DNA of 35,057 nt, from the IMG/VR virus record IMGVR_UViG_2563366917_000007; one strand, written 5' to 3'. Positions 1-35,057 of this stretch are shown piece after piece. Both the position numbers and the translations under genes were made by a program. Under the pieces are notes generated by a model that saw only the letters and a program-made list of their open reading frames with translations, did not search any database and was not told the DNA's origin. This stretch comes from a virus. Lineage: Duplodnaviria > Heunggongvirae > Uroviricota > Caudoviricetes. The stretch's first letter is position 1; every line of letters starts with the position of its first letter.

Positions 1-237
1 ATGATGTCTATAAATGAAGTTGTTAAACAGGACTGGCACCCCGCGCATGTTGTCGCGGCGGTGCATGTAAAAGGTTTTACTTTACGCTCTCTGTCCATTG
101 AAGCCGGTTTAAACCAGGATTCTTTAAAGAATGCCCTGTACCGCAAATGCCCAAAATATGAGCGCATTATTGCTGATGCTATTGGTGTTGCGCCGGAGGA
201 GATCTGGCCCAGCCGTTACGCTCGTAAGGTGGCATAA
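1..237 (+). CDS. ner: Ner-like DNA-binding regulator (Ner/Nlp family); may be 5'-truncated by the window edge
   Basis: 78-aa ORF directly upstream of the transposase; C-terminal IWPSRY motif and overall layout typical of the Ner/Nlp HTH family; position matches Mu ner. Confidence 0.75.
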   Translation: MMSINEVVKQDWHPAHVVAAVHVKGFTLRSLSIEAGLNQDSLKNALYRKCPKYERIIADAIGVAPEEIWPSRYARKVA

Positions 238-239
238 AA

Positions 240-2327
240 ATGTTTGTATCAGTTAATGAGCTTGTAGGGTTACCAGGTATGCCGGGAACTGCGCAAGGGG
301 TGCGGTATTCCATAAGGAAACTGGCCTCATCTGAGCATTTCAGGCGCAAACGTGCGGGTTCAAAAACCATTGAATACAGCATCGACTGCCTCCCTCCGGT
401 TACACAACGGGCGTTACGTGAGCGACATGTAGCTCAACTGATGGCAAGCGCCCCGCGGGAGATAACTACCCAGCCTCCTGTAAAGCGTGAACGCAAACAA
501 AATGTTGTACAGCCTGTTGAGGCATATCGCGGTTCGCCACAATTGGTAGAAGAGCGTCTGAATGCGCTTACGGAAAATCAACGTAAAGTTGCAGAAGCGC
601 GCATTGCTCTTGTCTGTGAAGTTCTACGAATTAGCCAGGAGCCGGGATTCAGTTGTGCCAGCGCTATACGTTTTATTGTGTCGCGGTTAGCGCAGGGTAA
701 CCTGGAAGAACGCCTGGAATCTTTGGTCATTACTGCTAATGCCCGTAAAGGAAAAGAGCGAACTCTGAGCGCAATTACGCTCAAACGTTGGATAGCTGCG
801 TTTAACAAAGCACAGAATGCCGCAGAACGACTGCTGTTACTGGCACCAGGAAAGCGCGACGAAATAAAACCGGAAGAAATTAGCTGGCTGCCTGAATTTC
901 TGGCGCAGTATCGTCAGGCTAACGGCAGGCCTATGTCTGAAGCCTATGAGGATTTTGTCGCTGATTGGCAGCGTCGCCATGCGGACGAACCATACATGCT
1001 GGAGGTGATGCCTTCCTATGATGTTGTCCGGTATGCCATGAAAAAACTGCCGGAAGTGGTGAAACAAAAAGGGCGCGTTACCGGCAGTGAATACCGTCAG
1101 CTTGAAGGATTCACCCGCCGCGACTGGACAGCTATGCCGGTGAATTATGTCTGGATTGGTGACGGTCACGGTATGAAGCTGAAATGTGCACATCCGATCC
1201 ACGGGCGTCCATTCTCACCGGAAGTTACATTTGTGATCGACGGTGGAACCCGGTTTGTTGTTGGCTGGAGTCTTGACCTTGCCGAGAACGTGTTCGCCGT
1301 TGCCGGTGCGATACAGCACGGCATTCGCAACCACGGAAAACCGTTTCTGTATTACTCGGATAATGGTTCTGGTGAAACGGCTGACATACTGGACAAAGAG
1401 GTCGTGGGTATTCTGCCCCGCCTGGGGATTAAACACCCTACCGGTATTGCCGGTAATCCACAGGGGCGCGGCATTATTGAACGCCTGAACCGGACACTGC
1501 CGATGCGTATAGCCAGGAGGTATCGCACCTATTTTGGCAAGGGTGCTGACCGGGAATCGTTGCGTGTACTTAACCGTGATCTGCGTTCAGCGTTTAACGC
1601 CATGCAACAGGACAAGCCTCTGAACGACCGCCAGAAAGCTGCAATGCGCGAGCTACCATCGTGGGCGGAGCTTATTGAGGCTATTCGTGAAGGCGTGGAA
1701 TGGTACAACAACCGCCCGCATTCTGAGCTGCCAATGAAACCGAACGGGCGGCATTACAGCCCGGCAGAGTTCAGAAAAAAACGCCTGGCAGAAGAAGACA
1801 CCGAAATTGAGTGGCTGAGTGATCTTGAGCTGCGCGACATGTTCCGCCCGATGGTGGAACGCCCGGTAAGACGGTGCGAAATTCAGTGGCTGAACAATAT
1901 TTACTACGCGCCGGAGTTGCGTGACGAACACGGTCGCAAAGTACTTATCAGTTATGACATTCATGACGCCGAGCGAATTACGGTACGTCGCAAGGACGGC
2001 AGCTTTATCTGTGAGGCGATATGGAACGGCAATAAACGCACAGCCTTTGCTGTCAGTGCTGAATATCACAAACAACAGCAGCGTATTAAAGGAATGCGCA
2101 AACGTGCTGAGGAAAAAATTCGTGATGCTGAGGATGAAGGCATTCAGATACTGGAGCACAAACAGGCTGAACCCTGGCTGGATAATGTTTATCGCCCGGT
2201 TGGCAATACGGTAACCATCCAGCAACAGGATTATGAGGAGGATTACGACGAAGATTATGAACGCGATTTCAGGCTGGGTTTGCAGAAGCTTGTAGCCATA
2301 CAGGAACAGGATGATCCGCTGGCCTGA
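240..2327 (+). CDS. A: Mu-type DDE transposase (A protein)
   Basis: 695-aa ORF immediately after ner; candidate DDE triad in IGDGHG / YYSDNGSG / IIERLN segments; acidic C-terminal tail; followed by the B ATPase as in Mu. Diverged from the Mu A sequence as I recall it. Confidence 0.85.
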   Translation: MFVSVNELVGLPGMPGTAQGVRYSIRKLASSEHFRRKRAGSKTIEYSIDCLPPVTQRALRERHVAQLMASAPREITTQPPVKRERKQNVVQPVEAYRGSPQLVEERLNALTENQRKVAEARIALVCEVLRISQEPGFSCASAIRFIVSRLAQGNLEERLESLVITANARKGKERTLSAITLKRWIAAFNKAQNAAERLLLLAPGKRDEIKPEEISWLPEFLAQYRQANGRPMSEAYEDFVADWQRRHADEPYMLEVMPSYDVVRYAMKKLPEVVKQKGRVTGSEYRQLEGFTRRDWTAMPVNYVWIGDGHGMKLKCAHPIHGRPFSPEVTFVIDGGTRFVVGWSLDLAENVFAVAGAIQHGIRNHGKPFLYYSDNGSGETADILDKEVVGILPRLGIKHPTGIAGNPQGRGIIERLNRTLPMRIARRYRTYFGKGADRESLRVLNRDLRSAFNAMQQDKPLNDRQKAAMRELPSWAELIEAIREGVEWYNNRPHSELPMKPNGRHYSPAEFRKKRLAEEDTEIEWLSDLELRDMFRPMVERPVRRCEIQWLNNIYYAPELRDEHGRKVLISYDIHDAERITVRRKDGSFICEAIWNGNKRTAFAVSAEYHKQQQRIKGMRKRAEEKIRDAEDEGIQILEHKQAEPWLDNVYRPVGNTVTIQQQDYEEDYDEDYERDFRLGLQKLVAIQEQDDPLA

Positions 2328-2400
2328 ATAAAAAAACAGTCCGCGGGAACGGACTGTTAAACGAAGGAAACAAAGCTGATTTGAATAAACGGAGAATAAT

Positions 2401-3333
2401 ATGACCGATATTAATGATGTTTTCAACACGATTAACACACTTATTACTGACGGCGTAAAAACACAAAGCGCTATTGCTAAAGAAGCGGGGGTGTCGGAGG
2501 CCACTCTTTCTGAACTTCGCAAAGGCCGTTACAAAGGTGATACCGAAGGGATGCATGACAAATTACTGATGTGGCATCAGAGCTGGCAAAAAAGTCTGGA
2601 GTTACCTGGCGCACCACAACTTGTGGAAACACAAACCCTCCGTGATTTGCGCGAGCTGTTTCAGACCGTGCGTGTTATGGGCTGTATCAGCGTTCTGGTT
2701 GGTGTGCCGGGTGTTGGTAAAACCGTTGCGGCCCGTGAATACAGTAACCGTGTATCTAATACCTGGATGGTGACCCTTTCCCCTGCACACTCAACAGTGA
2801 CTGAGTGTCTGCTGGAGCTGGCAGACGCGCTGGGAATTGATAATCCGCAAAGAAATAAAGGCGCATTGACCCGCGCCATTCGCAAAAAACTGAATGGCAC
2901 ACGCGGTCTGGTTATTGTGGATGAAGCTGACCACCTGAGCATGGACGGGCTGGAGCAGTTACGCGCCATTCAGGATGCAACCGGCGTCGGGATGGTATTG
3001 ATTGGCAACCCACACCAGTTAGCCAAAGCCACACACCGGGGAACAGATGACCTTGCACGTTTGTTCAGTCGTTTCGCCAGAACAAAGCAACTACGTAAAG
3101 CCAAAAAGGCTGACGTGGTGGCAATTGCGAAAGCCTGGGGCATTGAGGGCGAAGATGAATTATCACTCATGCAGAGCATCGCGGAAAAACCAGGTGCATT
3201 ACGTGTATTAACTCATACGCTGAATCAGGCGTGGCTGGCTGCCAGCGGGAAAGGCGTTCCTCTATCCAAAGGCTACATTAAAGCAGCTTTTAAAGAGGTT
3301 TACAGCAACCCGAAATTACTGAACTGGTGGTAA
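2401..3333 (+). CDS. B: Transposition target-DNA activator ATPase (B protein)
   Basis: 310 aa; Walker A GVPGVGKT and Walker B-like VIVDEADH; N-terminal HTH-like segment; position after A; good RBS (GGAGAATAAT-ATG). Confidence 0.85.
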   Translation: MTDINDVFNTINTLITDGVKTQSAIAKEAGVSEATLSELRKGRYKGDTEGMHDKLLMWHQSWQKSLELPGAPQLVETQTLRDLRELFQTVRVMGCISVLVGVPGVGKTVAAREYSNRVSNTWMVTLSPAHSTVTECLLELADALGIDNPQRNKGALTRAIRKKLNGTRGLVIVDEADHLSMDGLEQLRAIQDATGVGMVLIGNPHQLAKATHRGTDDLARLFSRFARTKQLRKAKKADVVAIAKAWGIEGEDELSLMQSIAEKPGALRVLTHTLNQAWLAASGKGVPLSKGYIKAAFKEVYSNPKLLNWW

Positions 3334-3344
3334 GGGGATAAATA

Positions 3345-8963: not shown

Positions 8964-9386
8964 ATGCAGCATGATTTATTTGAACACGATCCGGCAATTC
9001 GCCAGTTAATCGGGCATATTGATAACATCCCGGCCCCGGAACTGGAATCACGCTGGCCCCGTTCAGTGGTTGATCTGATTGATGTTCTGGAAAACGAACT
9101 GAAACGCCAGAACGTCAGCAATCCCCGTGAGCTTGCCCGTAAACAGGCCGTTGCCCTGTCCTGTTTTCTGGGGGGGCGGCAGTTTTATATCCCCTGCGGC
9201 GATACTATCCTGACCGCGTTACGCGACGATTTGCTTTACTGCCAGTTCAATGGTCGTAACATGGAAGAACTGCGTCGCCAGTACCGCCTGTCCCAGCCGC
9301 AGATCTACCAGATTATTGCCCGCCAGAGAAAGCTGCATACACGACGTCATCAGCCTGATCTGTTCTCACCTGAAAGCCAGAAATAA
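8964..9386 (+). CDS. C: C protein, late-gene transcription activator (Mor/C family)
   Basis: 140 aa (same length as Mu C); paralogous to Mor; RBS GGGGGAAAAT-ATG. Confidence 0.8.
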   Translation: MQHDLFEHDPAIRQLIGHIDNIPAPELESRWPRSVVDLIDVLENELKRQNVSNPRELARKQAVALSCFLGGRQFYIPCGDTILTALRDDLLYCQFNGRNMEELRRQYRLSQPQIYQIIARQRKLHTRRHQPDLFSPESQK

Positions 9387-23131: not shown

Positions 23132-25576
23132 ATGACCGGGAAACGCTTAAAAGCGTCAGTCATTATTGACCTTAATGGCAATCTTTCCCGGCGTTCCCGC
23201 CAGTATTCGAACCAGATAAACGCCCTGTCCCGTAGCGGGCAAAGTTCCCTTCGTGCCCTGCGTATGGAGGTTGTGCGCGTTTCTGGTGCCATTGACAGAA
23301 TGGGTTCTCTGTCAACCCGTACATTCCGAATGCTGTCAGCCGGGGCGCTGGGTATCGCTGGCGTGGGTTACACCGCCAATAAACTGTTTATTGGTGCAGC
23401 CGCCCAGCGTGAGCAACAGATCATCGCCATGAACTCGCTGTATCACGGCGATAAGGTCAGAGCGCAGGCCATGATGGCCTGGGCAAAGCAGAACGCGAAG
23501 GACACCACGTGGGGGCTGAGTGGTGTTCTTGATGAGATCCGTTCGTCGAAAGGCTTCGGCATGACGGATGAACAGACGAAACAGTTCATCACCATGTTGC
23601 AGGATCAGGGGGCCATGCACGGCTGGGATTTACCCACTGCACAGGGTGCCTCACTGCAACTGAAACAGATGTTTGCCCGCCAGCAAATCACAGCGGCGGA
23701 TGCCAACCTGCTGACCGGTTACGGTATCAACGTTTATCAGGCGCTGGCTGATGCAACGGGAACGGACGTTAAAAAAATCCGTGATCTGGGTACAAAGGGC
23801 AAGCTGGGCATGAAATCCATTCTGACGGTATTCAGAACGCTGTCAGAACAGTCAAAAGGTGCACAGGCCAGTGCGATGAACTCCTGGGACGGGATGTTCG
23901 CCCAGATGGAAGCCAACCTGCTTGAATTTCGCATAAAGGTGGCAAACAGCGGCCCCTTTGAAGAAATCAAGAACGAGATGCGCCGGGTGCTTAACTGGCA
24001 CGACATGGCGGATAAATCCGGGGAACTTGACGCACTGGCAGAAAACATTGGTCAGAAATTTCTGACCACGTTCAGAACGGTAAAAATCGCGGCGCAGGAA
24101 TTATGGCGCTGGCTGAAACCGGGCAAGGATGCGCTGGTATGGGTTGACCAGAATATTGTCAGCCTGAAAAAACTGGCTGCTGTTCTGGTGTCCGTCTGGC
24201 TTGCCAACAAAGCTCTGAGGACAGGCTGGGCCGTGGCTAAACCCTCATGGCAGGTTGCCAGTTATCCGTTTAAAACCGGGCGTCGTATGTGGCGCCGGAT
24301 GCGGAACCGCAAACGTGAGCAGGCAGGTCTGCCGATCCCGGCGCCCATGACAACTGAGGCGCTGTTGCAGGGCACCGGCATTCAGCGTGTGTTTGTCATC
24401 AACTGGCCCCGTGGATTTGGTGGCTACGGGAGTGGCGGCGGTCGTCGCGGACGCGGCGGCGGAAGAACGCCCCCGCTGTTACCCCGCCAGCCGCTGTTGC
24501 TGCCCGGGCCACGACCACTGCCATTACCTGCACCACGCCCTGTGCCGGCATTACCCCCACCCGGCGTTCCGGCAGCAGCACGCCCCGCGCCACGACCTTT
24601 ACCCGGTAAATCCGGTCTTCCGGGCAGGTTTGCAGGCAGCGCTGCCGCGCAGCAGGTTACGGGAGCGGCAGGAACGCTGGCGAATGCCGGGCGTACTGTC
24701 AGCAGACTGCTTTCCGGTGCCGGAAACAGGCAGACCGCGCCATCTCCGGTCGTCCCGGTAACACCGCGCCCCGCGCCCCGCCCTTTGCCCGCTAAATCCG
24801 GTCTTCCGGGCAGGCTGGCAGGCAGCGCTGCCGCGCAGCAGGTTACGGGAGCGGCAGGAACGCTGGCGGATGCCGGGCGTACTGTCAGCAGACTGCTTTC
24901 CGGTGCCGGAAACAGGCAGCCCGCGCCATCTCCGGTCGTCCCGGTAACACCGCGCCCTGCGCCACGCCCTTTGCCCGCTAAATCCGGTCTTCCGGGCAGG
25001 CTGGCAGGCAGCGCTGCCGGGCAACGGGTTACGGGAACGGTCGGAAAACTGGCTGATGTCGGGCGTGCCGTTGGCGGGTGGTTTTCCGGTATCGGGAACA
25101 GACTCGCAGACAGCGCAATCGGTAGGGTTGTGACAAAAGGTGCCGGGGCGCTGGGCTGGATGGGGAAAGGTGCCGGTCGTGCCCTGTCACGTCTGGGTGG
25201 CCCGGTAATGGGGGCACTCCAGCTTGCCCCCGTCCTGATGGATGAGCAGGCGTCAACCCATGAAAAAGCAGGCGCAATTGGCAGTACAGCCGGTGCATGG
25301 CTCGGCGGTGCCGTTGGCAGCCTTGCCGGACCGCTGGGTACGGTTGCCGGTGCCACGTTGGGCAGTGTCGCCGGGGAGTATCTGGGCGGTTTTGTAACCG
25401 ACCTGTATCAGAAATGGACGGCCCCGGATAAGGAACCGCAGGAACAAAAAGTGAATGCGGAAGCCTCGCTGCGCGTCGAACTTGGCGAGGGGTTACGTCT
25501 GACCAGTTCCCGCGTCACCGAGGACGGTATGGGGCTGAATATTTACGCGGGCGATAACTACATTACAGGCTGGTAA
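23132..25576 (+). CDS. Y: Tail tape measure protein
   Basis: Start at ATG 23132 (RBS AGGAAAT) rather than ORF-track 23039; ~814 aa; helical N-terminal half, Gly/Pro-rich low-complexity C-terminal half. Confidence 0.8.
24581..25080 (+). repeat. 186-bp near-perfect tandem repeat (~2.7 copies) inside the tape measure gene
   Basis: Anchor TAAATCCGGTCTTCCGGG recurs at 24607, 24793 and 24979 (period 186 bp = 62 codons); encoded copies differ at only a few residues. Confidence 0.85.
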
Positions 25577-25580
25577 AACC

Positions 25581-27068
25581 ATGTTTGAAGATGCTTTAAA
25601 TGCCGTTAATGCTGTCCGGGATAAAATCAGCGGTGGTAAGAAAACAACCGGCAAAGGCACGTTTCGTAACGTGCCGTTTCTCGTCATCGAGGAGCAAAAA
25701 CAGGCTGGCGGACGTCGCCTGGTTAAACGCGAGTACCCGTTACGTGATACCGGCGGCGTCAATGACCTGGGGAAAAAGCTTCGCTCCCGTACATTCAGCG
25801 CCTGCATTCTGAACAGCAACGCAGAAACAGCCAGAGATGAAGCGGGTGCGCTGATGGATGCTCTTGATGCTCCGGGTGGCGGTGAGCTGGTACATCCTGA
25901 TTTCGGCACTGTGGACGTCATGGTGGATTCATGGGAATGCCGCACTAAAGCGGATGAACTGAATTATTACGCGTTCACCGTTACCGTTTATCCGTCGTTG
26001 CAGGATACTGCCCCGGACTCAGAGACAGACACCAGTGCAGCCGTACCGGCACAGGCCGTTGCTGTAACCGGTTCTCTGGGAGATACGCTGTCCTCTGTCT
26101 GGCAGACCGTAAAAGATGGCACTGCGGCGGCAACCGCCGTGATGGAAGCTGTAACCGGTGTCATCGATGATATCAGTGATGCGGTGGACAATCTGGGGGT
26201 TACGCAGACTGTCAGCGGTCTGATGGGATCGCTTTCTGCGATGAAAGGCTCTGTGACCAGCCTGATTAACCAGCCTGCCATGCTGGCCTCCTCGCTGATG
26301 GGGGCGCTGTCCGGCGTTTCATCGTTATGCGATACCCGGACAGCATTTTCCACATGGAACCGTCTGGCGCAGCGATTCGAACGTCGCCATGCCGCCACCG
26401 CAGGCAGACAGGGGACAATCACAACCTCGTACAACAGTCCGGTTGCAGAAAAAAATATTGCCACACTGAACTACGTCATGCTGGCAGCAGCACAGACATA
26501 CCGGGCGGAGGCAGCAAGCCAGGCACTGACTGCGGCACTGGATTTCAGTCGCCGGATGGATAATGCCGCCCGTGCACCTGTACTGGATGCCCCGTCCACC
26601 ACAACCGGCACAGCCAGCGGGGCCAGCAGCACATCCGCTACCGTCACACAGGGACAGTTACAGTTAACTGCCATAACCCCGGACGGCGGTTTTTCACAGG
26701 TATCCTTTTCAGACAGTGGTACAGCCACGCCCCCGGTATTTGAAAGTGTGTCCGATATCGGAAAAACAGCCGCCATGCTGGGGGCAGCGCTGGATACCGT
26801 CATTCTGACGGCATCTGAGCAGGGTTTTTCGACAGACAGCGCTCAGCTTACGCAACTGCGCCTGCTGGTTGTTGCTGACCTGGAAAAACGCGGACTGCAA
26901 CTGGCGGGCAGTGAAATGCACAGCCTGCCGGAGACGATGCCCGCAGTGGTGGCCCTGTACCGTTACACAGGAAACAGCCGGAACTGGCAACGGCTGGCCC
27001 GCAGGAATGGCAGCAGCAACCCGTTATTTGTTCCCGGTGGTGTCAGTACTGAGGTGATTAATGAGTAA
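25581..27068 (+). CDS. N: DNA circularization protein N-like (Mu gp43 family)
   Basis: 495 aa, directly after the tape measure gene; synteny. Confidence 0.7.
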
Positions 27069-30298: not shown

Positions 30299-30831
30299 CA
30301 CCCTATCAGACGGCCTTTCTGCAATTACTGCCGTCAGGGCTTGCCTGGAATAAAAGCCCCGACAGCAAATTATCTGCGCTGGCGCAGGCCATCAGCGACG
30401 TGATTGCCACTGCGGCGGATGATGCGCGGCAAATGCTGCGGGAGCGTTTCCCGTCCACATCCCGCTGGTATCTGGGTGAGTGGGAATCATTTCTGGGGTT
30501 GCCGGACTGTACAAGCGAAAACGGCACCCTGTCCGAACGCCAGCGGGCTGCCGCGAATAAAATGCGTATGACCGGCAATCTGAGTCGGCGCTTTTATGAA
30601 TGGCTGGCTGCGCAGTACGGTTTTACCGTCAGGCTGACGGATTCCACAGAAGGCCAGTGGGTTACGCAGGTCAATATTTACGGTATTAAAAATTATCGCA
30701 ACGCAACGGTGCTGGATAATGTTCTGACGCCGTTACGTGTTTATGAATCGGGTGCGCTGGAATGTTTACTGGAGAAATATAAACCTGCACATCAGATTTA
30801 TAAATTTGTTTACCATGACGGAGATAACTAA
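30289..30831 (+). CDS. Baseplate/tail protein (Mu gp48, P2 gpI-like)
   Basis: 180 aa; overlaps neighbours; immediately precedes the fiber gene. Confidence 0.65.
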   Translation: MAVTPYQTAFLQLLPSGLAWNKSPDSKLSALAQAISDVIATAADDARQMLRERFPSTSRWYLGEWESFLGLPDCTSENGTLSERQRAAANKMRMTGNLSRRFYEWLAAQYGFTVRLTDSTEGQWVTQVNIYGIKNYRNATVLDNVLTPLRVYESGALECLLEKYKPAHQIYKFVYHDGDN

Positions 30832-33395
30832 TGTTTTATATTGATAACGACAGCGGCGTAACCGTCATGCCGCCCGTATCCGCCCAGCGTAGTGCTATCG
30901 TTCGCTGGTTTTCAGAAGGTGACGGGAATAATGTTATCACATGGCCCGGCATGGACTGGTTTAATATTGTGCAGGCGGAGTTATTAAACACGCTGGAAGA
31001 AGCCGGTATTCAACCGGATAAAACAAAATTAAACCAGCTTGCACTGTCCATTAAAGCCATTATGGGCAATAACGCGCTGCTGATAAAAAATAACCTCAGC
31101 GAAATAAAAACGGCCGGGGCATCAGCACAGCGCACAGCACGTGAAAATCTGGGTATTTATGATGCCAGTGTGAGCAAAAAGGGGCTGGTTCAGCTAAGCA
31201 GTGCAACAAACAGCACCAGTGAAAAGCTGGCAGCAACGCCAAAAGCGGTCAAGGCAGCAAATGACAACGCAAATTCACGTCTGGCGAAAAATCAGAACGG
31301 TGCAGATATCCAGGATAAATCAGCTTTTCTGGACAATGTTGGCGTTACCAGCCTGACGTTTATGAAAAACAATGGCGAAATGCCGCTTGATGCTGATCTG
31401 AATACATTTGGTCCCGTTAAGGCTTATCTGGGGATCTGGTCTAAAGCTACCTCAACTAACGCAACACTGGAGAAAAATTTTCCGGAAGATAATGCTGTCG
31501 GTGTGCTTGAGGTTTTTGCTGCCGGCAATTTTGCAGGCACGCAACGCTTTATCACGAGAGACGGCAATGTATACATGCGTAAACTCGCCAATAAGTGGAA
31601 TGGTACTGATGGTCCATGGGGCGTATGGCGTCACACTCAATCAGCTACCCGCCCTTTGAGTACGACTATAGACCTGAATACGCTTGGAGCCGCCGAACAT
31701 CTTGGTTTATGGCGTAACAGTAGCTCGGCTATAGCTTCATATGAACGCAATTATCCAGAGGAAGGCGGCTTTGCTCAGGGGACGCTTGAGATCCTCGAAG
31801 GCGGGAATTATGGAAGAACACAACGTTATACCACTCGCCGTGGAAATATGTATGTCCGCTGCCTTGCGGCAAGCTGGGATGCATCAAATCCGCAGTGGGA
31901 ACCGTGGTTAAGAGTCGGTCATCAGTCAGAGAGTCGTTATTACGACGGGGATTTGAATGATGTGACTTCACCAGGTATTTACAGCGTTACAGGTAAAGCG
32001 ACCAACGGTCCAGTACTGGACGGAAACGGCGTGACTGTACTCGGCATTCTGGAAGTGTTGAGGCGGTTTGATGGTGTTAATGTATGGCAGCGTTATACAA
32101 CTGCCGGAACAGGTACAACCCTTAAAGGCCGCACCTTTGAGCGCGTCTTTACCGGCAGCTCATGGAGCGAATGGCGGGAAGTCTACACCTCGTATTCACT
32201 TCCCCTGAATCTGGGTATCGGCGGTGCTGTGGCAAAGCTCACCAGCCTGGACTGGCAGACCCACGACTTTGTGCCGGGCAGTCTGATAACCGTTCGGCTT
32301 GATAACATGACCAACATTCCCAACGGTATGGACTGGGGCGTCATTGATGGCAACCTGATAAACATCGCAGTTGGTCCGAGTGATGATTCCGGTACGGGGC
32401 GCTCAATGCATGTATGGCGCAGCACTGTAAGTAAAGCGAACTACCGCTTTTTTATGGTGCGTATTTCAGGAAATCCGGGACGCCGCACGATTACAGCAAG
32501 ACGAGTACCAATCATTGACGAAGCCCAGACATGGGGCGCGAAACAGACATTCAGTGCTGGCCTTTCTGGTGAACTGTCCGGCAATGCGGCGACAGCAACA
32601 AAGCTGAAAACAGCCCGTAAAATTAATAACGTTTCGTTTGATGGAACATCAGATATTAACCTGACGCCGAAAAATATTGGTGCATTTGCTTCAGGAAAAA
32701 CAGGAGACACCGTTGCGAATGATAAAGCCGTTGGATGGAACTGGAGTAGCGGAGCCTATAACGCAACTATTGGTGGGGCATCAACGTTAATTCTTCATTT
32801 TAATATCGGGGAAGGAAGTTGTCCCGCCGCCCAGTTTCGCGTTAATTATAAGAACGGTGGTATTTTTTATCGTTCTGCTCGTGACGGTTACGGATTCGAG
32901 GCTGACTGGTCTGAGTTTTATACCACAACGCGAAAACCTACAGCGGGAGATGTCGGTGCACTGCCGTTATCTGGTGGTCAATTGAATGGTGCTCTGGGTA
33001 TAGGAACATCCAGTGCTCTTGGCGGTAATTCGATTGTTTTGGGTGATAATGACACGGGCTTTAAACAAAATGGTGATGGTAATCTGGATGTTTATGCTAA
33101 TAGCGTCCATGTTATGCGCTTTGTCTCCGGAAGCGTTCAAAGTAATAAAACCATAAATATTACGGGGCGTGTTAATCCCTCGGATTACGGTAACTTTGAT
33201 TCCCGCTATGTGAGAGATATCAGACTTGGCACACGTGTTGTCCAGACCATGCAGAAAGGGGTGATGTATGAGAAAGCAGGGCACGTAATTACCGGGCTTG
33301 GTATTGTCGGTGAAGTCGATGGTGATGACCCCGCAGTATTCAGACCAATACAAAAATACATCAATGGCACATGGTATAACGTTGCGCAGGTGTAA
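30831..33395 (+). CDS. S: Tail fiber protein (S-like), unusually long, with three internal domain repeats
   Basis: 854 aa; fiber-like N-terminal attachment region; three ~80-aa repeats (approx. aa 187-268, 279-362, 372-452) sharing D-L-N-T-x-G ... NYPE ... TQR(F/Y)xTR ... W; fiber-like Gly/Ser/Thr-rich C-terminal region. Confidence 0.8.
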   Translation: MFYIDNDSGVTVMPPVSAQRSAIVRWFSEGDGNNVITWPGMDWFNIVQAELLNTLEEAGIQPDKTKLNQLALSIKAIMGNNALLIKNNLSEIKTAGASAQRTARENLGIYDASVSKKGLVQLSSATNSTSEKLAATPKAVKAANDNANSRLAKNQNGADIQDKSAFLDNVGVTSLTFMKNNGEMPLDADLNTFGPVKAYLGIWSKATSTNATLEKNFPEDNAVGVLEVFAAGNFAGTQRFITRDGNVYMRKLANKWNGTDGPWGVWRHTQSATRPLSTTIDLNTLGAAEHLGLWRNSSSAIASYERNYPEEGGFAQGTLEILEGGNYGRTQRYTTRRGNMYVRCLAASWDASNPQWEPWLRVGHQSESRYYDGDLNDVTSPGIYSVTGKATNGPVLDGNGVTVLGILEVLRRFDGVNVWQRYTTAGTGTTLKGRTFERVFTGSSWSEWREVYTSYSLPLNLGIGGAVAKLTSLDWQTHDFVPGSLITVRLDNMTNIPNGMDWGVIDGNLINIAVGPSDDSGTGRSMHVWRSTVSKANYRFFMVRISGNPGRRTITARRVPIIDEAQTWGAKQTFSAGLSGELSGNAATATKLKTARKINNVSFDGTSDINLTPKNIGAFASGKTGDTVANDKAVGWNWSSGAYNATIGGASTLILHFNIGEGSCPAAQFRVNYKNGGIFYRSARDGYGFEADWSEFYTTTRKPTAGDVGALPLSGGQLNGALGIGTSSALGGNSIVLGDNDTGFKQNGDGNLDVYANSVHVMRFVSGSVQSNKTINITGRVNPSDYGNFDSRYVRDIRLGTRVVQTMQKGVMYEKAGHVITGLGIVGEVDGDDPAVFRPIQKYINGTWYNVAQV

Positions 33396-33398
33396 ATT

Positions 33399-33926
33399 AT
33401 GCAGCATTTAAAAAACATTAAGTCAGGTAATCCAAAAACAAAAGAACAATATCAGCTAACAAAGAATTTTGATGTTATCTGGTTATGGTCCGAAGACGGA
33501 AAAAACTGGTATGAGGAAGTAAGTAATTTTCAGCCAGACACAATAAAGATTGTTTACGATGAAAATAATATTATTGTCGCCATCACCAGAGATGCTTCAA
33601 CGCTCAACCCTGAAGGTTTTAGCGTTGTCGAGGTTCCTGATATTACCGCCAACCGACGTGCAGACGACTCAGGTAAATGGATGTTTAAGGATGGTGCCGT
33701 GATTAAGCGGATTTATACGGCGGACGAACAGCAGCAACTGACAGAATTACAGAAGGCAACTTTGCTTTCCGAAGCTGAATCCGTGATTTTGCCGCTGGAA
33801 CGCGCTGTCAGGCTGAATATGGCAACAGATGAGGAGCACAGCCGACTGGAGGCATGGGAACGCTACAGCGCTCTGGTCAGCCGCGTGGATACGGCAAAGC
33901 CAGAATGGCCACAAAAACCAGAGTAA
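33399..33926 (+). CDS. U: Tail fiber assembly protein (U-like)
   Basis: 175 aa; C-terminus [25 protein letters not shown] is the typical Tfa signature; directly after the fiber. Confidence 0.8.
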
Positions 33927-33954
33927 AAATTAAGGCCCGATAGCGGGCCTTCTC

Positions 33955-34060
33955 TTATTCTGGTTGTTCGGAAAACGTTACTGGCAGGCTGGAGGGGTCT
34001 GTATATTCGACCTTCTGCGCATAGAGCATCCACTCGGTTAATTTTTGTTTATTCTCGTCG
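33955..34060 (-). pseudogene. Remnant of a second, inverted tail fiber assembly gene (U'-like C-terminal fragment)
   Basis: Minus-strand ORF ends ...LTEWMLYAQKVEYTDPSSLPVTFSEQPE, matching the Tfa C-terminal signature, tail-to-tail with U as in an invertible G segment; the upstream part lacks Tfa features. Confidence 0.4.
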
Positions 34061-34101
34061 GAAATGATACCCAGCCGTAGCGAACGCATATAGAAAACGA
34101 C

Positions 34102-34210
34102 GATCGAATCAATTGAATCGATCGGTAATACAGATCGATTATGCCCCAATAACCACACTCAACCCATGATGTTTTTTAAGATAGTGGCGAATTGATGCAA
34201 AGGAGGTGAG
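34102..34210 (+). promoter_or_regulatory. mom operon control region: three clustered Dam sites (CGATCG) plus candidate C-dependent Pmom
   Basis: GATC at 34102-34105, 34120-34123 and 34133-34136, all within 35 bp and all in CGATCG context, ~75-110 bp upstream of com; AGGAGG RBS before com. Confidence 0.6.
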
Positions 34211-34399
34211 ATGAAATCAATTCGCTGTAAAAACTGCAACAAACTGTTATTTAAGGCGGATTCCTTTGTTCACATTGAAATCAGGTGTCCGCGTTGCAAA
34301 CGTCACATCATAATGCTGAATGCCTGCGAGCATCCCACGGAGAAACATTGTGGGAAAAGAGAAAAAATCACGCATTCTGACGAAACCGTGCGTTATTGA
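34211..34399 (+). CDS. com: Com zinc-finger translational activator of mom
   Basis: 62 aa; CKNC...CPRC zinc finger; 3' end overlaps mom; matches Mu Com as I recall it. Confidence 0.85.
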
Positions 34400-35057
34400 G
34401 TATGAAGGCCAGATTGTTGGCTATGGTTCAAAGGAGCTGCGCGTTGAAACCATATCCTGCTGGCTGGCCCGCACAATTATTCAGACAAAGCACTATTCCC
34501 GCCGTTTTGTGAATAACTCTTACCTTCACCTGGGGGTATTCAGCGGGCGCGATCTGGTTGGCGTTCTCCAGTGGGGATATGCCCTTAACCCCAACTCAGG
34601 TCGTCGTGTCGTGCTTGAAACGGATAACCGGGGCTATATGGAGCTGAATCGCATGTGGCTACACGACGACATGCCCCGCAACTCTGAATCACGGGCCATC
34701 AGCTACGCGCTGAAAGTTATCAGATTACTGTATCCGTCAGTGGAGTGGGTTCAGTCATTTGCTGACGAACGCTGCGGATGCGCAGGCGTTGTGTATCAGG
34801 CGTCGAATTTTGATTTTATTGGCAGCCATGAAAGCACGTTCTACGAGCTGGATGGTGAGTGGTATCACGAGATAACGATGAACGCAATTAAGCGCGGTGG
34901 ACAACGAGGCGTGTATTTACGGGCTAATAAAGAGCGTGCCGTGGTGCACAAATTTAATCAGTATCGCTACATCAGGTTCCTGAACAAGCGAGCAAGGAAG
35001 CGGCTAAATACTAAGCTATTCAGGGTTCAGCCATACCCTAAAAGCACTCCCGATTAG
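34320..35057 (+). CDS. mom: Mom DNA-modification enzyme (adenine carbamoylmethylation, anti-restriction); initiation codon uncertain
   Basis: ORF overlapping com 3' end and ending at the last base of the window; position at the right end as in Mu. True start may be downstream of 34320 (e.g. GTG at 34350). Confidence 0.8.

Follow-up and report, generated by a model that had tools for sequence, protein, structure and literature searches.

The right end of the 35,057-nt stretch of viral DNA analysed here (the window) carries the com-mom late operon of an Escherichia coli Muvirus prophage, which very probably works as it does in phage Mu. A sequence-only reading had proposed this operon together with Mu-like control by Dam and OxyR, by C and by Com, and the comparison with Mu agrees on both counts. 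Window 34081-35041 aligns with Mu 35638-36598 without gaps at 97.9% nucleotide identity, the known cis elements of the mom regulatory region are base-identical to those of Mu, Pfam assigns the two products to Com and Mom, and both gene C and the Com hairpin are present. The com-mom system is already known, a textbook circuit annotated in public genomes, and complete E. coli genomes with the identical locus have its genes annotated as Com and Mom. The operon is ordinary except for the loss of the upstream invertase gene, gin. For sequence identity, the presence of C, predicted RNA folds and conservation we rely on our own comparisons, and for binding, regulation and enzyme activity on the Mu literature. 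The parts of the circuit are as follows.

8964-9386, plus strand: gene C, late transcription activator (Pfam Mor PF08765, E=9.5e-34)
34090-34136, no strand assigned: candidate Dam/OxyR operator, placed by GATC positions and OxyR consensus matches
34137-34189, plus strand: C-dependent mom promoter, identical to Mu base for base
Within 34137-34189, plus strand: C-binding region, overlapping the -35 region
34172-34177, plus strand: T6 run, wild type, without the tin7 change
34177-34182, plus strand: -10 element TAAGAT
About 34189, plus strand: mom transcription start
34202-34206, plus strand: com Shine-Dalgarno sequence GGAGG
34211-34399, plus strand: com, zinc-ribbon translational activator of mom (Pfam PF10122, Zn_ribbon_Com, E=1.2e-7)
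34318-34336, plus strand: Com target hairpin, exact 19-mer match, stem AUGC/GCAU with a 6-nt loop and a CC-N3-GAG motif
34333-34356, plus strand: translation-inhibition hairpin, stem UCCCACGG/UUGUGGGA
34339-34342, plus strand: mom Shine-Dalgarno sequence GGAG, in and beside the loop of the inhibition hairpin
34350-34352, plus strand: mom GUG start, inside the inhibition stem
34350-35057, plus strand: mom, GNAT-fold adenine-modifying enzyme (Pfam PF25680, E=1.9e-74)

The resemblance to Mu com-mom (AF083977 35638-36602) extends to every element of the operon: the three GATC sites, the promoter with its T6 run and C site, the Com target, the inhibitory hairpin, the GUG start, the gene order and the 50-nt overlap of com (34211-34399) with mom (34350-35057). 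Only two bases differ from Mu between 34081 and 34268, at 34084 and 34115, and a single base, in the old gin stop codon (TGA in the window, TAA in Mu), sets the window apart from Mu between about -104 and the start of com. In the proteins, the window differs from Mu by Com D20V and by Mom R154C and K235R (numbered from ATG 34320), and Mom ends four residues later. Upstream of about -108 the two part company: where Mu has the body of gin and, at -123, a Fis site, the window has a remnant of the tail-fibre assembly gene U'. The Mu-like phages D108, PhiR68_1 and Yersinia vB_YpM share 96-98% identity with the window over all 977 nt, and their Mom proteins have the longer C-terminus (...KSTPD) as well; unlike the window, they have a complete invertase gene upstream. 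A Mom-based search provided the 47 related loci (3 from genomes and 44 from IMG/VR) used for the comparisons below.

The prophage as a whole is a close relative of Mu. By blastn, window 3340-31309 is collinear with Mu (AF083977) at 95-98% identity, and window 1-3340, which holds the following early-region genes, has no nucleotide match to Mu.

1-237: ner-like gene
240-2327: transposase A
2401-3333: B-type gene

The window begins with the ner ATG and ends exactly with the mom stop codon; attL, the repressor gene and attR all lie outside it. An identical com-mom region occurs in two complete E. coli chromosomes, S6 (CP107134) and 1290 (CP184007), and the prophage in 1290 interrupts ydcO, which fits the expectation for a transposing phage. 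Separately, the tape-measure gene contains an in-frame 186-nt (62-codon) tandem repeat in 2.6 copies (window 24581-25066), to three places of which blastn maps the single Mu stretch 25560-25727. The repeat should lengthen the tape measure and may lengthen the tail.

In Mu, Dam and OxyR govern the mom promoter Pmom, C is required for its activity, and Com is needed for translation (PMC3378877, PMC4461284). We placed the transcription start of the window operon from the tin7 oligonucleotide (PMC4461284), described as spanning -58 to +20 in PMC3378877. No consensus sigma-70 promoter was found in the mom promoter region, as expected for an activator-dependent promoter, and Pmom is activator-dependent in Mu (PMC4461284). 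The promoter is predicted to be intrinsically inactive and to fire late in lytic growth, when C would be bound over the -35 region. The activator itself is identical to Mu C save for its last residues (PESQK in the window, PETPK in Mu), and it keeps both of the clamp-binding motifs, QHDLF and QPDLF, described in PMC12867686.

The transcript would first be translated into Com, 61 of whose 62 residues are identical to Mu Com, with all four cysteines kept. The sole change, D20V, falls at a position where relatives show D, K, V, S, N, L or A. An NCBIfam scan returned no match for Com, Mom or C; this was uninformative, and Pfam settled family membership. The name that PGAP gives to Com, 'Com family DNA-binding transcriptional regulator' (in L002 4512-5358, from E. 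coli 1290, and in other RefSeq records), is at odds with its role as an RNA-binding translational activator.

Com would act on RNA structures in the com-mom overlap. The native Com target is GAAUGCCUGCGAGCAUCCC, a short hairpin with a six-residue loop beside a translation-inhibition structure that holds the Mom GUG start in its stem, and in vitro selection (SELEX) yielded the target motif CC-N2-3-GAG (PMC6483171). As the lack of a Com-target stem-loop at the mom start would have counted against the sequence-only reading, the overlap was searched for one: the exact 19-mer is present at 34318-34336, where it is predicted to fold as a 4-bp stem with a 6-nt loop, and the predicted inhibition hairpin adjoins it. 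The latter has a minimum free energy of -9.5 kcal/mol (z = -2.64) and pairs CCCAC with the GUGGG that holds the mom start, although the 76-nt fold of the whole com-mom overlap is no more stable than shuffled sequences (z = -0.34). By analogy with Mu, translation of Mom would be blocked while the GUG start and Shine-Dalgarno sequence are held in the hairpin at 34333-34356, and Com, bound to the small hairpin immediately 5' of it, would open this inhibitory structure.

Both stems are strongly conserved. Across the relatives, the Com target reads GA(A/G)UGCC-NNN-GAGCAUCCCAC everywhere; within the loop, variation is confined to NNN, where seven different triplets occur, and this variability fits the spacer of the SELEX motif. 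Every one of 121 stem cells pairs in 11 distinct sequences, the only two single changes both giving G-U pairs. A covariation test on the same 11 sequences found no double compensatory changes, and shuffles equalled the observed value; the test is uninformative, the stems being invariant and part of coding sequence. In one relative, L005, the inhibitory stem has grown to 10 bp through an insertion and is built from different bases. No Rfam family for the Com target was found, and the sole Rfam match, a sub-threshold one to IS102 (21.8 bits versus a gathering score of 46, E=0.4), was dismissed as chance.

Folding was also proposed as a way to find the true mom start, and it points to GTG 34350, in the inhibition stem, as in the curated Mu record. 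The longest open reading frame begins further upstream, at ATG 34320, which would give a protein of 245 aa. PGAP annotates this ATG as the start in E. coli 1290, and the residue numbering of PMC13219725 also begins there. We consider a start at ATG 34320 improbable. That codon sits inside the stem of the Com hairpin and lacks a Shine-Dalgarno sequence, while the GTG has GGAG 7 nt upstream; PMC6483171 likewise names GUG as the start; and a construct minus the first 10 residues was active in vitro (PMC13219725). Moreover, a reading frame opened at the ATG in L005 would meet an in-frame TAA before reaching the GTG, and this favours the GTG as the conserved start of mom. Beyond E. coli 1290, PGAP places the mom start at the upstream ATG more generally and calls mom a 'hypothetical protein' in many genomes.

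Read from GTG 34350, Mom is identical to Mu Mom at 229 of 231 residues, with a C-terminus four residues longer (STPD) of the D108/PhiR68_1 type. All seven active-site residues proposed in PMC13219725 are present (H58, Y59, R111, S124, D149, R151 and Y159, numbered from ATG 34320). In the same numbering, the R154C change lies three residues after R151; among the compared loci, cysteine at 154 is found in the window and in one 52%-identical homologue, and relatives have R, L or K. The protein would be expected to act as Mu Mom does, using Gly-tRNA(Gly) to convert adenine in phage DNA to N6-carbamoylmethyl-adenine, a modification that would protect the packaged DNA from restriction enzymes.

What sets the window apart from Mu lies immediately upstream of the operon, where the following features are found.

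30831-33395, plus strand: tail-fibre gene, a single 854-aa open reading frame
33399-33926, plus strand: tail-fibre assembly gene of the U / P2 gpG type, last gene of the tail-fibre operon (PF02413, E=3.4e-33)
33932-33951, no strand assigned: bidirectional intrinsic terminator hairpin, 8-bp stem in which 6 pairs are G-C, T-rich tail on each strand
33955-34081, minus strand: 3' remnant of U', 126 nt (42 codons plus stop; PF02413 profile positions 89-131)
34082-34116, plus strand: 3' end of gin, last ~36 nt including the stop TGA at 34114-34116 (aligns with Mu 35638-35673)

The tail-fibre gene is a chimera, with the N-terminus of Mu S to about 31309 followed by a body and tip like those of P2 gpH; together with the assembly gene it is 92-97% identical to P2-like phages, and an S'-like stretch lies at 32681-32960 within the single plus-strand frame. 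The terminator sequence is also found between U and U' in Mu. Beyond it, the U' remnant is 93% identical to Mu U' residues 137-177 and is a pseudogene in the PGAP annotation of E. coli 1290. It stops at ...CCGTAGC, where full-length U' (Mu, L028, PhiR44_2) continues TGTGAG, and is joined at about -108 to GAACGCATATAG, in the final ~36 nt of gin (35673 is the last position of gin in Mu). The operon's upstream edge had been described as abutting a Tfa remnant instead of an invertase gene. The remnant is indeed there, as U' with its PF02413 match, but the last ~36 nt of gin persist next to it, and this leftover end overlaps the OxyR operator.

Searches of the window found no other gin sequence (tblastn with Mu Gin) and no gix site, even with as many as 6 mismatches to the 26-bp sequence allowed; the same search picks out both sites in Mu. 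The second, inverted fibre set (S', U') is likewise not intact in the window, where 126 nt of U' survive. Because the U' remnant is joined directly to the last ~36 nt of gin, the window phage has no G-segment inversion, and it has kept the mom control region from the OxyR operator onward. At this junction the OxyR-consensus operator is preserved, as is the Fis site centred at -98, and the one at -123 has given way to U' sequence. Deletion by Gin acting at gix sites was rejected as the origin of the junction; there is no gix-like sequence, and neither breakpoint falls at gix.

A minus-strand open frame (33955-34158, 67 aa) crosses the mom operator in antisense and reads on, in the same frame, into the U' remnant. 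The divergent promoter momP2, known from Mu, lies upstream of this frame, which has no obvious Shine-Dalgarno sequence; in L029 the corresponding antisense frame is fused to a C-terminal remnant of S' (170 aa). We set this frame aside as a possible product of momP2, since its internal ATG is not preceded by a Shine-Dalgarno sequence and the protein would amount to just 44 residues of chaperone tail.

A rearrangement so close to the promoter, at about -108, raises the question of whether the operon is a decaying relic that lost gin and half of the G segment and in which mom or its control is perhaps nonfunctional. The loss of the Fis site at -123 and the presence near active-site R151 of R154C, otherwise seen only in the 52%-identical homologue, could be taken in the same sense. 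We regard decay as very improbable. The reading frames of com, mom and C are open over their full length, the known cis elements are all unchanged from Mu, and the remainder of the prophage is collinear with Mu at 95-98% identity. Removing the Fis site at -123 did not relieve Pmom repression in vitro and was without effect there (PMC3378877), and the leucine or lysine at position 154 in relatives indicates that change at this position is tolerated. The junction, moreover, persists in the two E. coli genomes and in one viral contig, L025, which is collinear with the window at 93% identity; its presence in a contig that has diverged by ~7% shows that it is inherited and viable. An operon that very probably still works as in Mu is therefore the reading we keep.

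A Mu-type com-mom region was found in 46 of 5,426 complete E. coli genomes, two of which have the junction seen in the window; among the others, those sampled have a recombinase gene. All 13 metagenome contigs with a Mu-type operator have an intact gin 3' end, and none has a new junction type. Across the viral contigs, gin is missing in about half. Several of these invertase-less loci, namely L006 (Enterobacteriaceae MGYG-HGUT-00110), L046, L048 and a large second lineage (e.g. L036), have an assembly gene directly upstream of com-mom and no trace of U', gin or the invertible segment. In common with the window they have an 18-bp GATC pair, the Com hairpin motif and the CCCAC/GUGGG stem, and their Com and Mom proteins are 60-72% and 83-97% identical, respectively, to those of the window. 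The invertase-less arrangement thus looks primary in these loci and derived in the window. In the second lineage (L024, L027, L030-L046), Mom is 93-97% identical to that of the window and Com only about 72%, and the promoter region is unrelated to the window's, with two GATC sites rather than three. This pattern implies that recombination took place inside the com-mom overlap, close to the Com target.

The GATC sites themselves lie at 34102-34105, 34120-34123 and 34133-34136, at about -87, -69 and -56 relative to the mom transcription start, so that the clustering of three sites within 35 bp (34102-34136) noted at the outset stands. The further claim that all three share a CGATCG context holds for the first two (34101-34106 and 34119-34124); the third is AGATCG, and the context common to all three is GATCG. 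The window as a whole has only about half as many GATC sites as its shuffled versions, 65 against 122 +/- 10, and the next tightest triplet spans 136 bp. In simulation, three of 65 randomly placed sites came this close with P ~0.09, and the argument from chance alone is not compelling. The significance of the cluster comes instead from its identity to Mu and its conservation in relatives. Wherever a lineage has a recognisable com, exactly 18 bp separate the first two sites, even if the flanks have diverged, and this distance between the two CGATCG (PvuI) sites of the window agrees with the 18-bp PvuI fragment that PMC3378877 reports for Pmom. A third GATC, 13 bp further on, is found in Mu-type loci, L006, L046, L047 and L048; it is CATC in the second lineage and absent in L005, both of which have two GATC sites versus three in the window. 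The ATAG of an OxyR half-site lies 12 nt upstream of the first GATC in Mu-type loci, the second lineage and L047.

The limits of the operator rest on matches to the OxyR consensus of PMC2909390, ATAGnTnnnAnCTAT-N7-ATAGnTnnnAnCTAT. A scan of the 35-kb window gave a top score of 13/20 at four positions, two of which start at 34090 and 34099, in two registers that cover the GATC cluster. In a Dam+ host, the three GATC sites of this candidate operator (34090-34136) would be methylated and the host repressor OxyR kept off; were they unmethylated, OxyR would be expected to bind and block transcription. A view of the triplet as incidental, leftover gin plus intergenic sequence with no Dam/OxyR role in the window phage, could draw on the chance level above, on a consensus match of just 13/20 and on the position of the first GATC within former gin coding sequence, yet it is highly improbable given that the 18-bp (and 13-bp) spacing is kept in the gin-less, flank-diverged L006, L046, L048 and second lineage, that the site accounts for two of the four highest-scoring OxyR-consensus matches in the 35 kb, and that experiments on the identical Mu sequence support the role (PMC3378877).

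Logic similar to that predicted here is known from agn43 of E. coli and gtr of phage P22/Salmonella, which have GATC in OxyR half-sites and in which methylation and OxyR binding are mutually exclusive (PMC2909390). Those loci are heritable ON/OFF phase-variation switches with intrinsically active promoters, whereas Pmom also needs C and Com. Pmom is not known to phase-vary, nor is it expected to.

The window junction is one of three independent rearrangements that removed gin, and their right end points fall within 8 nt of one another, corresponding to window 34081-34088 (about 1541 in L019 and about 2239 in L028). Their left partners differ: the window lineage has U', L017, L019, L020 and L022 have gin codon 55 (an in-frame deletion), and L028 and L029 have an S' remnant. 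Two of the three breakpoints lie at GAACGCATATAG to within 0-2 nt, with microhomology of just 1-2 nt. Selection for retention of the operator explains the right-hand limit of these events but not why none of them leaves more of gin, and three events are too few for the claim of a hot spot. We therefore raise only tentatively, as a possibility that we consider unlikely, that the mom control region has a recurrent recombination boundary at its left edge, at about -108 to -101 and directly 5' of the OxyR operator. If so, com-mom and its operator would be a discrete exchangeable cassette, or a hot spot would exist there, possibly linked to Fis-bound, bent DNA at -98 and -123, rather than the three end points being a coincidence.

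As a source of new mechanism the locus has little value, as mom regulation is among the most thoroughly studied of phage control circuits and the chemistry of Mom was solved recently (PMC13219725). Its uses lie elsewhere. First, it allows annotation to be corrected, both for the PGAP start of mom and for the PGAP name of Com. Second, together with its relatives it forms a natural deletion series, in which ~108 bp upstream of the transcription start are retained whenever gin is lost. Finally, it provides comparative evidence that the 18-bp GATC pair and the two RNA stems are constrained parts of the com-mom circuit in Mu-like phages.
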